Assembly (NCBI GenBank): GCA_964106645.2
Contig: OZ067043.1
DNA length: 64,000 nt
Reading direction: 5' to 3' (one strand)
From: Podarcis pityusensis
Taxonomy: Eukaryota
Below the pieces are notes generated by a model. It was given only the letters and a program-made list of their open reading frames with translations. It was not told where the DNA came from and did not search any database. The translations under genes were made by a program, and so were the position numbers. Numbering within the stretch: the stretch's first letter is position 1; the number at the start of each line of letters is the position of its first letter. Below, one piece after another: positions 17,815 through 45,492 of this stretch.

Positions 17815-18249
17815 TGTCAGGGAACTGCTATCGGAGCTAGAGGCGGAGGGAAGGCTCCAGAGGGATGGCGGAGAGGGTCCCAGTAGGGAGAGAGGCAGCC
17901 CGTCCACTGGGGAAGGAAATCAGCGTAACACCAGTAGAGAAGGGGGGCAGATGGCGGAATCAGAGAGGAGGCTCCAAGACTCCTCGCCGGAGACCAGCCA
18001 AGAGAGTACGGGTCCTCCGCTGCCCACACCCTCCCTGTGCAGAAGGCTTCCGCGCAGGGAGTCTAGGCGGAGACTAGGCGTCAAGGAACTTTTGTGCTGG
18101 AAGAAGTTTAAGAAACGCCCACTGACGGATTCTGCCAGCGACTGAGACAGTCACGATGCTGGAGGCTGTTCAGTCAGAAAGGGTTTAACCAGGTAACCTC
18201 CCCAGCAGTGGCGGCAACTTACGCACGAGCAACCCCTAAATCCATTACA
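17815..18249 (+). mobile_element. solo LTR (435 bp) of a Gypsy family related to the element at 38438-43928
   Basis: Starts TGTCAGGGAACTGC (same as the full element's LTR) and ends ...CCATTACA. 5-bp TSD GTACT at 17810-17814 and 18250-18254. Open frame 17816-18145 is homologous to the Pol C-terminus. Confidence 0.93.
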
Positions 18250-37897: not shown

Positions 37898-38437
37898 AAC
37901 TGAAACAAAATATTATAACAACAGATGTTTCCCCTGCAGTAATAGTTTCCGGTCCTAAACTAAAAATAAAAGCTATTATGCCAGTAAATGAATATAAATT
38001 AAAAAATAATCTACTAAGGAATTTCCTTGCTTATCATGTTTCCATAAAATAAGTGAGATTATCTTCATGGTTATAACCGTATATCCATGATAATGATGTT
38101 TTCTCAGTTGCAGGAAAGTGTATTCTAATTTTCATTAGGGAGTCTCTATGAAAATTAATTTCTAGGTTGAAAAATATAGGATGGCCTACTAAGTATGGGA
38201 AATTCTGCTCATACTTTTCAGGTTCATGTAATTATTATTACTATGGTTTATTGTAAAAAAAATAAAAAAATACAGTGCCCCCCATGTAATTTTGAATCAC
38301 ATAAATTAAACTTGTGTACCCCACCTCACCCCCGAGTTCAAATATAAACCTCCCAGAGATTGGGAAGGGTATTCACATTAATCTACAGCAGTAGAAAATA
38401 GTAGATAACCACAGTAGGTACCACTGCAGTGGGAAGG

Positions 38438-38845
38438 TGAGATGGGACGATGAGCTGCTTGTGTGTAAAATCCTAGTCCCTCAGAGTTTGGTCAAGTTTG
38501 CAAACCTCTGTCTGTAACGGAGCCCCTTAAACATGGCTCCGTCAGTCGCTGGCAGATTCCGACAGTGGTTGCTTTCGGAATCGCTTCCAACATAAAAGCT
38601 CCTTAACGGAAACACGTCTTCTGGACTCTCTGCGTGACAGTTTCCGGCGAGGAGTGGGTGTCCCTACAGGAGGTCCTGAAACCTCCCCACTGTTTTCGCT
38701 GGAAGTGTCTCTGAGCCATCCCTCCAGCTCACTTTCCCTCAGCTCAGCTCCTCTCCCCCTACTGGTTCCCTCTTCAGCTGCTGAGTCTCTCCCAACCTGT
38801 GTGAGCCCTTTCACTTCCCTTCCTTCCGATGGCAGTTCCCTGACA
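38438..38845 (-). repeat. 3' LTR
   Basis: Identical to 43521-43928 except C38827 versus T43910. Confidence 0.97.
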
Positions 38846-41800
38846 TCCACCTCCCCTCCAGGGCCCCCTTCATCCCCTCTCGCCCCCTCCTCTACGGGCG
38901 GTGAGGAGGCAAAACCCCGGAATGAACTTCCTTCATCTTCCGATGTCCCGAACACTTCTCTCCACCTGTTGCGGTTCCTGGTCTCGAAGTACTCCTCCTC
39001 CTCAGAGTCCATCTCCCCTTCCCCTTCCGAGTCCGAGAATCCTTCCAACTCCTCCTCCTCATCGGTGGTCCCAAAGTATTCCCTCCGGAACCTCTCCACA
39101 GGCTGAGGTTTCCTTGGGAACCTTTGATGGAACGTTTCTATCAATACCTCGTCATTGATATCTTCTGCCATTACCCAAGTGTTTTCTGACTCCGGTTCTC
39201 CTTCCCACGCTACCAAATACTCCACCTGATCCCCCTTCCACCTGGCGTCGAGGATTTCTGCCACATGGCTGCTGCATTCCCTTTCTTCTATGACCGGTCC
39301 CCGAGTGGCCATCCCTTCTCGTCCCCCCTCATACGGTGACAGTAACGACCTGTGAAATACTGGGTGCAGTTTCATGTGGTTGGGTAACCGGAGCCTGAAA
39401 GCCACTGGGTTGACCTGTTGAATGACCTCAAAGGGACCCAATCTCCTGGGTCTTAATTTCTTACAACCTCCTTTGAACGGCAACCCTTGGGTTGACAGCC
39501 ACACCCTATCTCCCACCCTTATGGTTTCACCTTCCCTTCGGTTCTTGTCTGCCTGCCTCTTGTATTCTTCCTTCGCCCTTTCTAAGTTGAGTTGGAGCTG
39601 ACGATGGATTGCTTCCATTTCTTCTACAAAATGCTCGGCTGCCGGGACGCTCCATCTCTCCCCTTCTCCCCCTGGGAAACCCCTGGGATGACACCCATAA
39701 TTAGCCAAGAAGGGGCTCATCCCTGTGGACACATTCTCGGCATTGTTGTAGGCAAATTCCGCCAGCGCCAACTTTTCTACCCAGTCATTCTCTCTGTCAT
39801 TGACATAACACCTCAGGTATTGCTGGAGGACACCGTTTGCTCTTTCCGCCTGCCCGTTGGTTTCAGGGTGCCGGGCAGTCGAAAAGTTGACCTCCACCTG
39901 CAGTAAGCTCATGAGCTTCCTCCAGAACCTGGAAGTAAATTGTTTTCCTCGGTCTGAGACCACCCTCAATGGCACCCCGTGCAACCTAAAAATGTGTTCT
40001 ACAAATAACTTCGCTGTCTCTTCCGCCGTGACTGCATGCGAGCAGGCTACAAAGTGGCACATCTTTGTTAGTAGGTCTACCACCACCATGATGGCTGTTT
40101 TCCCCTTGGACTTCGGCAGATCAGTCATAAAATCTATCGACACTGCCTCCCAAGGTCGTTCTGGGGTTGGTAAGGGTTCTAATAGCCCCGCCGGTGCCCG
40201 CCTCTCCCCTTTGGCTCGCTGGCATTGCTCACACCCTCTTACATACTCCCGTACATCTTCCCTCACCTTAGGCCACCAAAATTCCCTGGTGACCAACCAC
40301 ATGGTTTTGTGTTGTCCAAAATGCCCCGCCGTGGGGCTGTCGTGCAACTGCTTGAGTACCCTCCCCCTTAAGTCTCCTTCAGGGATATACAGTGCCCCTT
40401 TGTAATACAAAGCTCCATTTCTTTCCTCGAAACCCCCTGGTTCCTCTCCCTCACCCCTAAGACCTCTGAGCTTATTCTGGGCGTATTCATCATTCTCTGT
40501 TTCCTCTACCAGTTCTCTTTGTCCCACCAATGCCGCCCCACACACCCAGCGGTCCTCTGGAATGACATGTCTCTCTTCGGGTGCTCCCTCCCCCTCCAAA
40601 TATTCAGGTTTGCGTGAGAGAGCGTCCGCCCTAATGTTCTCTGGGCCTGGCACGTAACAAATCTCAAAGTTAAATTTGGAGAACTCCTGGGCCCATCTCA
40701 CTTGCCGTTGGTTGAGCACTCGTGCCGTCCTCCAATACTCTAGGTTCTTGTGGTCAGTGCACACTTGCACCTTATGTTGTGCGCCAATTAGCAGGTGCCT
40801 CCATCTCCGGAACGCCTCATGAATGGCTAGTAGTTCTCGGTCATACACCGTGTAGTTCCTCTCGGATTTGTTCAGCTTTCGCGAAAAAAAGGCACACGGT
40901 CTCCACTCTGACTCCTCCTTCCCTGGCTGCAGAAGCACCGCCCCAATCGCTCTGTCTGATGCGTCAGTTTCCACTCTCATCGGTTTTTGTAAATCCACAT
41001 GCAGGAGTTGTTGTTCCGAGGCGAAGGCCCTTTTTAGTTCCTCAAATGCTCGCTCCGCCTCCTCAGTCCAAACGAACTTCTTCTTACTGCTGAGACAGTC
41101 CGTAATGGGCGCCGTCAGGTGGGCAAAGTTTCGGATGAACTTACGATAGAAGTTCCCAAATCCTAGGAACCTCTGCACATCCTTCCTTGTTTTGGGTGTT
41201 TTCCATTCCAGCACCGCCTGGACCTTGCCGGGATCCATGGCCAATCCCTTGTCTGACAGGCGATACCCCAGGAATTCCACCTCCTTGGTATGAAACTGAC
41301 ACTTCTCCAGTTTCACCCACAGCTGGTTGGCTTGCAGCCTGCTCAACACTTCTCTGACGTCTCTCACATGCTGCTCCTCATTCTCAGAATACACCAACAC
41401 GTCGTCTAAGAAGGCCACACAATTCTTGTAAAGCAAAGGCCCCAGGACGTGGTTCATAAACGATTGAAAGCACGCGGAGCCTCCTTGTAGGCCGAAGGGC
41501 ATAACTAAATATTCAAATGCCCCCAAAGGGGTGAACATGGTGGTTTTCCATTCATCCCCCTTCCTTATTCGTATCAGGTTGTACGCCCCCCTTAGGTCCA
41601 GTTTAGTAAAAATCTTTCCCTTCCTGACCCTTGTCAAAATGTCGTCAATCCTGGGCATAGGGAAAGCCACTGGTTCTGACACTGCATTTAAGGCCCTGAA
41701 GTCACACACAAGCCTCGGCTTGTTCGTGTTTTTTTTATCCACAAAAAACACTGGGCTGCCCCCCACCGCCCTGGACTCTCTGATGAACCCTCTCTTCAGG

Positions 41801-42633
41801 TTCTTGTCAATGAACTCTCTTAGCTCCTGCATCTCTCTGTCTGACATGGCGTACAGCTTGCCTACAGGGAGCTGTGCCCCAGGGAGTAAATTGATTTGAC
41901 AGTCAAAGGGTCTATGCGGGGGTAGTTGGTCAGCTTCCCTTTCGCTGAAGACGTCGCGGAGATCTGCGTATTGTCGTGGTACCTTCACGTTCTCCGTTAC
42001 TTCAGTCCCTGCTAGGGTGGCTTGGGCCCCTGCCAAACCCTTTCCCTCTTTGCAGTGTTCTAAGCAATGTGCTGAACCAAAAGAAACCACTCTCTGATGC
42101 CAGCCCACCAGCGGATCATGTAACGCTAGCCAGCTCATCCCCAATATAATGGGAGCTCCTCCCAAGGTGGCCACATTAAACGCTATCAGTTCTGTGTGCC
42201 TTGCCACCTTCATTATCATTGGGACGGTCTGCAAGCTGACTTCTCCTCCCAACAGCTCCCTGCCATCGATCGTGGTCACCTGCAGGGGGTTGCTTAAAGG
42301 GATCGTCTGTATCTGGTGTTCAGCTGCAAACTCTTTGCTCATGAAATTGCAGGAGCTGCCTGAGTCCAACAGCGCCTTTATCTTTAGAGGGTGTCCGTTT
42401 GGCAGCTCTAGCGCCACTTCTATCACTAGGGCGGGTTTAGGAGGTTCTGGCGTGGGCACTTTCACTGCTCTTTGGCCTGGCTGCTGTGCCCCGACGGTGG
42501 CAGCCAGGCGTTGGCTTTTACTTGCTTCGGTATTTCTTCCTCTCTTCCCTCCACAGCTCCTACCATCCCTTGCCATTCCTTCCTCTGGGGGCAGACTCTG
42601 GCAAAGTGACCTGGCTGTTGGCAGAGATAGCAT
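38542..42633 (-). CDS. pol: Pol polyprotein (protease, reverse transcriptase, RNase H, integrase, chromodomain, acidic/basic C-terminal tail), probably expressed as Gag-Pol by -1 frameshift near 42520
   Basis: Protease LLDSGSSCNF; RT LDLRGAY, MPFGL and FLDD; RNase H TDASD; integrase HDSPTAGH..CEQC zinc finger and IDF/SDRG/AER DDE; GPF motif; chromodomain YLVAW..ENTW. 1363 codons without a stop. Confidence 0.97.
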   Translation of the reverse strand: MLSLPTARSLCQSLPPEEGMARDGRSCGGKRGRNTEASKSQRLAATVGAQQPGQRAVKVPTPEPPKPALVIEVALELPNGHPLKIKALLDSGSSCNFMSKEFAAEHQIQTIPLSNPLQVTTIDGRELLGGEVSLQTVPMIMKVARHTELIAFNVATLGGAPIILGMSWLALHDPLVGWHQRVVSFGSAHCLEHCKEGKGLAGAQATLAGTEVTENVKVPRQYADLRDVFSEREADQLPPHRPFDCQINLLPGAQLPVGKLYAMSDREMQELREFIDKNLKRGFIRESRAVGGSPVFFVDKKNTNKPRLVCDFRALNAVSEPVAFPMPRIDDILTRVRKGKIFTKLDLRGAYNLIRIRKGDEWKTTMFTPLGAFEYLVMPFGLQGGSACFQSFMNHVLGPLLYKNCVAFLDDVLVYSENEEQHVRDVREVLSRLQANQLWVKLEKCQFHTKEVEFLGYRLSDKGLAMDPGKVQAVLEWKTPKTRKDVQRFLGFGNFYRKFIRNFAHLTAPITDCLSSKKKFVWTEEAERAFEELKRAFASEQQLLHVDLQKPMRVETDASDRAIGAVLLQPGKEESEWRPCAFFSRKLNKSERNYTVYDRELLAIHEAFRRWRHLLIGAQHKVQVCTDHKNLEYWRTARVLNQRQVRWAQEFSKFNFEICYVPGPENIRADALSRKPEYLEGEGAPEERHVIPEDRWVCGAALVGQRELVEETENDEYAQNKLRGLRGEGEEPGGFEERNGALYYKGALYIPEGDLRGRVLKQLHDSPTAGHFGQHKTMWLVTREFWWPKVREDVREYVRGCEQCQRAKGERRAPAGLLEPLPTPERPWEAVSIDFMTDLPKSKGKTAIMVVVDLLTKMCHFVACSHAVTAEETAKLFVEHIFRLHGVPLRVVSDRGKQFTSRFWRKLMSLLQVEVNFSTARHPETNGQAERANGVLQQYLRCYVNDRENDWVEKLALAEFAYNNAENVSTGMSPFLANYGCHPRGFPGGEGERWSVPAAEHFVEEMEAIHRQLQLNLERAKEEYKRQADKNRREGETIRVGDRVWLSTQGLPFKGGCKKLRPRRLGPFEVIQQVNPVAFRLRLPNHMKLHPVFHRSLLSPYEGGREGMATRGPVIEERECSSHVAEILDARWKGDQVEYLVAWEGEPESENTWVMAEDINDEVLIETFHQRFPRKPQPVERFRREYFGTTDEEEELEGFSDSEGEGEMDSEEEEYFETRNRNRWREVFGTSEDEGSSFRGFASSPPVEEGARGDEGGPGGEVDVRELPSEGREVKGLTQVGRDSAAEEGTSRGRGAELRESELEGWLRDTSSENSGEVSGPPVGTPTPRRKLSRRESRRRVSVKELLCWKRFRKQPLSESASD
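38846..38859 (-). promoter_or_regulatory. polypurine tract (PPT)
   Basis: Minus-strand GGAGGGGAGGTGGA directly abuts the TG of the 3' LTR. Confidence 0.85.
42454..42522 (-). promoter_or_regulatory. putative -1 ribosomal frameshift signal (slippery site plus H-type pseudoknot)
   Basis: pol is in the -1 frame relative to gag. A_GUA_AAA, a 6-nt spacer, 10-bp stem 1 GCCUGGCUGC/GCAGCCAGGC, and loop GGGCAC pairing with downstream GUGCCC. Confidence 0.7.
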
Positions 42634-43475
42634 TTCCGGGCGCCTTTTCCCTCCTTCTTTCCCCCCTCACTGGGCTTTGAAACTGCGCGCGCGCGCGCTG
42701 TTCCGATTTCCATCGGCTCTGCCGGCGGGAAAGTTGGCTCTGGAATGTCTGGAATGCGGAACTCCTTCCAACGTTCCCCCTTCCCTTCCCGCCTCTCCAA
42801 TGCTCTCGCCTCCTGGCGCGCTCCTATGGTCAGCGCTGATTTGGTCAGCTGGTCCATAGACTCCGCCCTGGGCGCCCGGGAAAGTTCGTCTTTCACAGCC
42901 GAAGAAAGCCCTTCTTCAAAGAGCATTTGAATGGGTTCCGCCGATAGATCCCACCCCAATTTATGGATCAACATGGTGAACTCAGTCCAGTACTCACGGA
43001 CAGATCGGCTCCCCTGTTTGCAAGCCATTAACTGTCTGCGGACCACTCCCTGTTCAATATCGCTGGAAAACATCAGATCCATGGCGCGAAAGAACTTCAT
43101 CGTGTCCTTTAGGACGTCACTATTCGCTGCCATCAGGGGTCTAACCCAGTCTCTCGCCCCCTTTTCAAGATGCCCAATCACGAAAGCCACTCGTGATTCC
43201 TCGTCAGGGAATTCATCAAACTGCAGATTGAGGGCATATTGCATCTCTGTCCGAAAGCCATGATAGTCTTTGGGCTCCCCCCCAAACTTCTGCACCAATC
43301 CTGGTACCTTTCTGACGAGCTGGGTGTCTTTCCCCTTTTTGTCTGCATCCTGAGCCCTCCTCTCCTCGAGCCTCGCCGTCTGCAGCGCTAGCTGGACCTC
43401 CAACACCCGGTACCTTTCTTCCAGGCTTAGACCCGCTCCAGCTCCTGCTTCTCCGGTTCCGGCTGGGTTGCTCAT
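42462..43475 (-). CDS. gag: Gag (retrotransposon capsid domain plus CCHC zinc knuckle), PEG10/sushi-like
   Basis: 337-aa ORF starting 45 nt after the 5' LTR. Contains KQGSRSVREY..EF (major homology region-like), EPMEIG and CYLCQQPGHFARVC (CX2CX4HX4C). Confidence 0.95.
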   Translation of the reverse strand: MSNPAGTGEAGAGAGLSLEERYRVLEVQLALQTARLEERRAQDADKKGKDTQLVRKVPGLVQKFGGEPKDYHGFRTEMQYALNLQFDEFPDEESRVAFVIGHLEKGARDWVRPLMAANSDVLKDTMKFFRAMDLMFSSDIEQGVVRRQLMACKQGSRSVREYWTEFTMLIHKLGWDLSAEPIQMLFEEGLSSAVKDELSRAPRAESMDQLTKSALTIGARQEARALERREGKGERWKEFRIPDIPEPTFPPAEPMEIGTARARAVSKPSEGGKKEGKGARKCYLCQQPGHFARVCPQRKEWQGMVGAVEGREEEIPKQVKANAWLPPSGHSSQAKEQ

Positions 43476-43507
43476 GATGCCTTCTCCTGCACAAGCTGCT
43501 CACGGAG

Positions 43508-43518
43508 ACTGTCGGAAT
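43508..43518 (-). promoter_or_regulatory. self-priming primer-binding site
   Basis: ATTCCGACAGT lies 2 nt after the 5' LTR and is perfectly complementary to ACTGTCGGAAT inside the LTR (43639-43649). No TGG-initiated tRNA PBS is present. Confidence 0.8.
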
Positions 43519-43928: not shown

Positions 43929-45492
43929 GAAGGTAAACAGCGTTTCCGTACACTGTGGTTTCTGTCGCGGTGTCCCGTTGCACCAGAAGTGGTTTAGTCA
44001 TGTTGGCCACATGATCTGGAAAGCTATCTGCAGACAAATGCCGGCTCCCTCAGCCTAAAAGCAGAGTTGAGCACCACACCCCATAGTTGAATTCGACTGG
44101 ACTTAATCAGCCGGGGTCCTTTACCCTTAACAGCAGTAGAAAGATGGTCTTTCAATAAAATATTTGTTTTTGCATTTGGCCAGAAATGCTAAAATCAGAA
44201 TCTCTATGGTAACATAGAAATTGTTGAGACTTGTAGGTGTATTTTCCATTTACTGGGCATTATACTAGGGGCGGAGAGCAGGCAGGGGCGTGGCTGGTGC
44301 ACATCCCGGGGGTGTGGCACGTCGCCCGCGGGGGCATGGCACCTAGCGTGGTGGGGGGGCACACAGCGTGTGTCTGGGGGGGGCAGTCACGATGGTACCC
44401 TGCTCCCTGATAGTGCTGGGGGCGGTGTGCTCCCCGCGCGCGCCCCCATTCCTCTGCCAATGGGCAGCAGTGATGTATCTTTAGCAAAGATCAGAACTAC
44501 CTCATACCTGTCAACTGCTCCAGAAAAAACGGGACATCTCATTTTTTTTTCTCACAAAAGGACAGTGGTCAAAGTGGCTGCCATGATTTTGCACGATTTT
44601 GGGCTGCACTTTTTTCAGGCATGGCACCCAAAAGCACACATTTTGGGGTGCTGCCCAAGATTGCTGCCCTGAAAAAAAGCATTTTGGGGGAGCAGCGATT
44701 TTGTGTAGCACCCCAAAACATTCATTTTTGGGTGCTGTGCCAGGAAAAATTTGCTGTGATTTGTGCAGGAGGGTTGATCTGGAAGATAGTGTCCTGGATA
44801 TGGGGGTGCATTGTATTGGAAGAGCCAAACTAGAAGTTACACAGGTCAGAAACTTTGGCCTTCCAGATGTCACTGGACTACAACTCCCATCATCTCTGAT
44901 AATTGACTGTGCCAGCTGGGGCTGATGGGAATTGGGAGTCCAATAATATCAGAAGTTCCGCACCTGTCTTACACTTAACATGTGGTTGCTACCAAAAATG
45001 GCTGCTTGTCTAGATTCCCCCTCCCTTTCCCTGTCTAACAGAACCCATCTGTGCCTAGATGGTTACAATGCTGTAGTTTGCTCTGATGCTGCTCTCCAAC
45101 ATTGACTGCTACTTATACTTATTGGGTAGGGGGAGTGCCACACTGAATGTCAATGTAAACTATGAAGCCTGCTAACATAAAACAATGGCGTGGGAGAATA
45201 AAGTGTGGAACAGAAGATGGACCACAGAGGTGTGAGGAAAGACATATGCAACATAAGCTCTTCTGGTTCTACCTCTGACTTCTGTGCATTCAGCAGAACC
45301 TCTGCATAGCACCTATGTGCACATAAGCTTTATGCATCTAGACTCTCTGCATAGTCAAGGACCCTGTTTTTTCCAGGGTGTACAAGCCCATATACATGCA
45401 AGATGAATGCGTGTAGTTTCACATCAGAGGTTCTGCTGCATTGATAGAGGTCAGAGCATAGGGCCGAAGCTTAGTGGTCCAGCATATACTCT

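Follow-up and report, generated by a model that had tools for sequence, protein, structure and literature searches.

The pol frame of a self-priming Gypsy chromovirus from Podarcis pityusensis continues into the 3' LTR, where its last codons appear to be under purifying selection

Read-through of pol into the 3' LTR

We found that the pol frame of a full-length Ty3/Gypsy element, located on the minus strand of a 64,000-nucleotide stretch of Podarcis pityusensis DNA (contig OZ067043.1; hereafter the window, to which all positions refer), continues beyond the chromodomain and the polypurine tract (PPT) into the 3' LTR, and codon patterns among related copies indicate that the last ~45 LTR codons are under purifying selection at the protein level in the clade of families A to E. 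The element belongs to family A, a young, very abundant and recently mobile lineage of self-priming Gypsy chromoviruses. Its LTR-encoded, selected pol tail is a vertebrate variant of a design known from plants.

The two LTRs (43928-43521 and 38845-38438) are 408 bp each, have TG...CA ends, differ at one synonymous site and are flanked by the 5-bp target site duplication (TSD) CCTTC at 43929-43933 and 38433-38437. The pol frame (42666-38542, 1374 codons from stop to stop) contains the Pfam domains PR, RT, RNase H, IN, SH3 and Chromo (the last at residues 1135-1182), followed by a tail of ~190 amino acids. The order PR-RT-RH-IN with a C-terminal chromodomain, together with the LTR ends, the PPT adjoining the 3' LTR and the short TSD, is that of a Ty3/Gypsy chromovirus. 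The primer binding site (PBS; 43508-43518) is complementary to 11 nt within the LTR (LTR nt 280-290), which predicts self-priming of the Tf1/sushi type; primer and PBS covary between families, and a predicted RNA fold pairs the two (z -1.94). The self-primer puts the inferred border between U3 and R near LTR nt 280. The gag frame (42462-43499, minus strand, ATG at 43475) encodes a capsid-like region and a CCHC knuckle and overlaps pol, which lies in the -1 frame, by 205 nt (42462-42666), the zinc knuckle being inside the overlap. An AATAAA-type signal was present in most LTRs of families C to E, and none was found in those of families A and B (38438-38845; 17815-18249). Among named proteins, the nearest are UniRef entries of Podarcis muralis, two of which, P0004 and P0006, contain the whole tail. 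A LEDGF exon of the host is an exact match to lacertid proteins.

As the original prediction stated, no stop codon follows the chromodomain, and the frame passes through the PPT (38846-38859, translated as G-G-E-V-D) into 303 coding bases of the LTR. When counted after the first LTR base, which completes the Asp codon of D|VREL as its third base, these are 100 codons (38844-38545) and a TGA at 38544-38542. The stop lies 24 nt past the primer start, and all of the inferred U3 is coding in this element. The predicted superposition of self-primer and protein was also seen, the last eight codons and the stop (38542-38568) overlapping the copy of the self-primer at 38566-38556, the inferred start of R. 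No in-frame ATG is present within the LTR frame of family A, and the LTR stretch is continuous with pol, so that it is not a separate ORF. An antisense frame of 191 codons (38531-39106) was rejected as a candidate, since other families have stops in it. Contigs of four sequencing runs cover the tail; contigs of this kind are uninformative on expression, strand and start.

When the LTR segment of this copy was shuffled with its dinucleotides preserved, the frame remained open in 3.4% of 2000 trials, and the corresponding range across 14 correctly registered elements (the mis-registered row of L140 was dropped) was 1.2-13.6%. The open frame of a single copy is thus modest evidence; the argument is carried by conservation between families and by codon-level selection.

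Read-through in other copies and families

Most intact members of the family do not stop before the LTR: 27 of 30 family A copies, chosen solely by their SH3 domain, have a frame that stays open to the same end, and the other three are broken upstream or do not contain the junction. By a hand count, the full 1374-codon frame is present in 102 of 150 among the copies listed. For the older families, 69 copies were picked on SH3, nine of them without the junction, and in 40 of the remaining 60 the LTR frame is open to the position of the Cys-Trp pair described below (hand count, with some duplicates). The solo LTR at 17815-18249 (plus strand, 435 bp, TSD GTACT), which had been taken as independent support, indeed provides it: it belongs to family B and has an open frame of 109 codons in the same phase with a homologous module at its end, and family B copies with the internal region attached also read through. 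Pairs of 5' and 3' LTRs confirmed 70 to 109 LTR codons in families A to E (70 to 90 in C to E), the read-through being present in four diverged sister families besides family A. In family F, a separate clade, LTR pairs confirmed that pol extends 117 codons into the LTR. In family H (L189, L190, L193 and L194), an old chromovirus, pol ends directly after the chromodomain and before the PPT, and the tail is therefore not required by every relative.

A phylogenetic tree of the SH3-chromo region placed families A to E together with family I, P0011 and P0016 in one supported clade and family F with family H; this tree, unrooted and built without named reference elements, fits one or two origins of the long tail. 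Read-through was not seen in the two family I copies, both of which are interrupted at the junction, where the upstream frame ends; the two are split by the insertion of another abundant LTR element, which has the TSD CTTAG. Family I (L249, L293 and L294) is a sister family in which one FxGF motif (see below) is very clear, and in L293 the LTR-side frame ends with CLFCWRR.

Among 44 two-LTR elements, which were partly selected on the tail, both frames are open in 22, one LTR is broken in 15, and seven were scored as broken in both. Only two or three of these seven share one lesion (a stop in L153; a change in a G-run in L236 and perhaps L235), and the occurrence of the same break in both LTRs of two or three of the 44 elements indicates that copies with a broken tail were inserted.

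Selection on the LTR-encoded peptide

We compared 39 family B copies, picked on SH3, by separating inherited variants (common to at least three copies) from private ones, with CpG changes excluded. In LTR codons 66-101, inherited variants were N6:S15 (w 0.13) and private variants N33:S13 (w 0.85; p=0.0013), with a synonymous rate near that of IN; the SH3-chromo region of IN, used as a control, gave w 0.08 for inherited and 0.60 for private variants. LTR codons 1-65 had w 1.23 and thus no constraint, and selection was not significant in family B when the whole LTR frame was treated as one unit (p=0.65). The other two frames and the region after the stop gave w 0.8-2.7. The best window, which was picked post hoc from the alignment, was matched in 1 of 300 permutations. 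The dN/dS comparison that the original prediction had proposed is therefore favourable, and its claim that the LTR encodes a C-terminal module of integrase holds for the last ~45 codons; the ~60 LTR codons that precede them form a spacer that varies freely within the frame. In the present copy, the spacer corresponds to 38677-38844 (residues 1275-1330), is variable in sequence and length with the frame kept, and is predicted to be disordered, and the module corresponds to 38569-38676 (residues 1331-1366), including the Cys-Trp codons at 38592-38587.

Comparisons between families are consistent with the codon test. Between families A and B, pN was 0.20-0.24 and pS 0.89-0.96 over 36 codons around the motif, and the relation was reversed in the other frames; in six of seven short comparisons among families C to E, the highest pS was found in the pol frame. 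The peptides follow the pattern basic - hydrophobic - x x - hydrophobic hydrophobic - C W - basic, with synonymous swaps in the codons beneath L-L-C-W. The CW motif was also found in the distant protein P0011 and in the LTR-side frame of the sister family I. Cys-Trp is the part that changes least across A to E, I and P0011; the basic residues are variable.

These results bear on the possibility that the stop was simply lost, that a purine-rich U3 is open by chance and that the tail has no function. Such neutral read-through would agree with the frequency at which a shuffled LTR is open, with w near 1 in the spacer, with the few elements inserted with a broken tail and with family F, in which no selection signal was detected in the tails of 46 copies (N7:S3, w 0.87; low power). 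It does not explain the selection on the last ~45 codons. Moreover, the distance from the LTR start to the CW motif ranges from 179 to 287 nt and is always in phase in open copies (partly owing to selection on open frames), and most breaks are private to one LTR, as in the 15 of 44 elements with one broken and one open frame. We give neutrality very little credence; it is largely refuted for the A to E clade, a statement which does not extend to family F.

An alternative in which the conserved segment is a DNA element, namely a core promoter lying ~30 nt before the start site, with the peptide as a by-product, draws on the spacing of the motif: the Cys-Trp codons, TG(T/C)TGG, lie 26-31 nt upstream of the self-primer in all seven elements in which both were found, which is the position of a core promoter, and family F has GATAAA at a similar distance, just past its stop. 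Synonymous sites near saturation (pS 0.9 between A and B; 0.56 within B), the loss of the TTTTAT of family A through synonymous swaps in family B subfamilies and the specificity of the signal for the pol frame all argue against this alternative, which we consider improbable as an explanation of the segment, although Cys-Trp itself may overlie a 6-nt DNA motif. The TGTTGG under Cys-Trp was also considered as a relic LTR end and was rejected, since the case of L249 is a nested element.

The position of the stop would fit a role at the RNA level, in which translation of U3 would bring the stop near the 3' end of the RNA and shield the genomic RNA from decay, the motifs being secondary. The stop is always near the U3/R border, 18-39 nt past the primer start in families A to E (5 nt before it in one case) and ~36 nt before it in family F, and such a role would account for a spacer that is open yet unconstrained. 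It leaves the amino acid conservation of the module unexplained, and family H has a normal 3' UTR; we therefore regard this role as highly improbable.

A cage-less chromodomain and two FxGF motifs upstream of the PPT

The original prediction read the tail as an LTR module. This was borne out in part and missed what lies just upstream in the same tail, namely a chromodomain without its cage and two motifs resembling the TND-interacting motifs (TIMs) of host proteins. The chromodomain (39121-39264) does not have the first and third residues of the aromatic cage (S and E here), the cage being defined as in PMC3605345 (papers are cited by PMC number, for their accessible text). In sliding windows, two more constrained islands with low N:S appeared between the chromodomain and the PPT, and they coincide with two motifs of the form helix-F, 8-9 acidic residues and FxGF. 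Motif 1 (39037-39090) has a linker of 8 acidic residues and LxGF here, with FxGF in the sister families, and motif 2 (38911-38964) has W..VF, a linker of 9 acidic residues and FRGF. By one tally, F, G and F are invariant in 12 of 12 motifs; FxGF is found in 11 of 12, motif 1 of family A being LxGF. TIMs are defined by a short helix with a hydrophobic anchor, an acidic S/T-rich linker of 8-16 residues and FxGF (PMC9987994), and the invariant hydrophobic anchor F and the acidic linker of 8-9 residues agree with this definition. TIMs bind TFIIS-N-terminal (TND) domains, more strongly once phosphorylated by CK2. According to the same source, every known partner of LEDGF and HRP2 carries FxGF, and lentiviral integrases use the same domain.

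The cage is lost in families A to E and I and in P0011, and it is kept in families F and H, which do not have the FxGF motifs. Among 150 representatives, 43 were callable, 40 of which have a cage and no motif and three a motif and no cage; on the tree, the loss of the cage and the gain of the motifs count as a single event.

Searching the PDB by sequence with motif 1, with the tail or with a motif profile gave no significant match (the best, at E 0.74, was a Numb peptide), the TIM profile retrieved no known TIM in the PDB, and a search of the ESM Atlas gave no usable match. A complex prediction for the lizard LEDGF IBD with motif 1 scored 0.06 against a mark of 0.34, a value that, for a peptide in this tool, speaks neither for nor against binding. 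AlphaFold predicted a disordered tail (pLDDT < 50), in which motif 1 and the Cys-Trp segment were modelled as helices with low confidence.

Relation to known elements

Protein-coding U3 regions are known from retroviruses, in HIV nef and MMTV sag. These had been named as precedents, and the likeness holds as far as a protein-coding U3 is concerned; nef and sag are, however, separate ORFs, whereas the LTR stretch described here is the C-terminus of Pol. The closer precedent is the pol of plant CRM group A chromoviruses, which runs into the 3' LTR and encodes a targeting motif there (PMC3059260, PMC3605345, PMC6317226), and the coding-LTR layout is accordingly not new. The present element shares with CRM group A the extension of pol into the 3' LTR but is not a member of that group. 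In CRM group A the CR motif replaces the chromodomain, whereas the present element retains, upstream of the PPT, a chromodomain without the cage, followed by two FxGF motifs; the CRM elements are centromeric, tRNA-Met primed and from angiosperms, while this element has a self-complementary PBS and squamate relatives. The likeness to CRM group A is one of layout.

With the Tf1/sushi V-clade (Sushi-ichi, Amn) the element shares a chromodomain integrase and self-priming through an 11-nt complement of the PBS (PMC6317226, PMC7175516), the PBS of Tf1 pairing with the element's own RNA (PMC7175516), and its LTR start, TGTCA, is comparable with the att motif of Sushi (PMC3601003). It differs from these elements in the 100-codon LTR-encoded tail and the FxGF motifs, which are absent from their descriptions in the accessible texts. 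The accessible text of PMC3601003 has no mention of ORFs in Sushi LTRs, and that of PMC7264820 has no match for an overlap with the LTR. The candidate motifs resemble the TIMs of host proteins such as IWS1, JPO2, KMT2A and others in the helix with a hydrophobic anchor, the acidic linker, FxGF and the tandem copies (PMC9987994), and differ in that they lie in a retrotransposon integrase, upstream of an LTR. The accessible text of that review names lentiviral integrases as the viral users of the TIM-binding domains and has no match for 'transpos'.

Short import or targeting motifs in a disordered integrase tail have counterparts in yeast. The integrase C-terminus of Ty1 contains an NLS. In Ty5, a short motif at the integrase C-terminus targets the element (PMC7175516); both are Copia elements, and in the accessible text the tail is not described as LTR-encoded. 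The original prediction had left its novelty to a check of the literature, and our search of openly accessible papers found neither a vertebrate LTR-encoded pol tail nor an FxGF motif in a retrotransposon integrase.

A possible targeting function of the tail

We cautiously favour a reading, which we hold to be slightly on the likely side, in which the integrase carries a disordered tail of ~190 amino acids with short motifs for nuclear import and for tethering to host chromatin. A -1 frameshift would yield Gag-Pol, and the tail would remain attached to IN. Its order would be a degenerate chromodomain, two docking motifs, a free spacer extending across the PPT and over most of U3, and the basic/LCW helix. 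The FxGF motifs may dock on TND domains, most likely those of LEDGF or HRP2, as a substitute for methyl-lysine reading, and the LTR-encoded helix may act as a nuclear import signal and as a second contact with chromatin or DNA. Runs such as K-R-F-R-K in families A, B, D and E presumably fit the classical NLS pattern, which family C fits less well. The overlap with U3 would have a small cost, because the PPT and the LTR terminus dictate no more than a few codons (G-x-V-D-V-R-E), because a purine-rich U3 tolerates an open spacer and because the frame ends about where the 5' end of the RNA (the self-primer) begins.

The module could also be a real peptide with another role, either as an acylation or membrane-binding site at the invariant Cys, which sits between hydrophobic and basic residues, or as an Arg/Ser-rich RNA chaperone for particle assembly, possibly freed by the protease. 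The conservation of Cys-Trp over the basic residues would fit this possibility, since an NLS has no need of an invariant Cys, and the CW helix may resemble acylated helices. Nevertheless, a test for an amphipathic helix in this segment was not significant beyond shuffles, the module sits on IN behind the chromodomain and two TIM-like motifs, and the basic patch at the end of the family F tail is without Cys. We consider such a role unlikely.

A broader proposal, which we regard as possible and somewhat doubtful, is that a squamate Gypsy lineage may have traded methyl-lysine reading for host mimicry, with the cage lost, tandem FxGF motifs gained for docking on LEDGF/HRP2, at the domain that HIV integrase uses, and a second anchor placed in U3, and that LTR-encoded integrase tails may serve vertebrate sushi-type elements in general as a targeting slot that has been remodelled repeatedly. 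The interest of the tail lies mainly in the testable targeting hypothesis that arises when an LTR-encoded module is found together with FxGF motifs of host type and a chromodomain without its cage. Insertion-site choice by vertebrate chromoviruses is poorly known, and two short peptides and many young insertions are now at hand. If the FxGF motifs bind LEDGF or HRP2, a retrotransposon would have reached the lentiviral tethering factor by copying a host motif. In any case, the coding-LTR design of centromeric elements in plants is now seen in a vertebrate lineage that is very abundant and was recently mobile. Where LTR-finders or ORF annotators end pol at the PPT, this part of the protein is lost.

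Tails of related elements

Family F (L185-L188, L195, L196, L201 and L202) is a second young clade, in which the chromodomain cage is kept and the copies have frames of 1623 or 1270 codons. The basic patch at the end of its tail contains RRSARL, which we take to resemble the nucleosome-binding core of HMGN, and the frame is open in 42 of 46 copies. Relatives of family F, P0061 (Rhineura) and P0135 (Vipera), have long tails, acidic and then basic, past a PPT-like junction. The older families B to E, H and I are strongly represented on one contig (C19 of G000) in the match lists, as would be expected for a non-recombining or repeat-rich chromosome.

Fish relatives appear to end 13-44 amino acids past a PPT-like junction. 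Among the matches listed, 17 of 150 representatives (P0020, P0024, P0074 and 14 others) have a GG(S/T/D/N)V junction followed by 13-44 residues, and their short tail is probably LTR-encoded. These tails end with R-x-x-S-P-x-(Y/F), which presumably resembles C-terminal BRCT-binding phospho-motifs, and the three representatives that were checked are from cyprinid fish.
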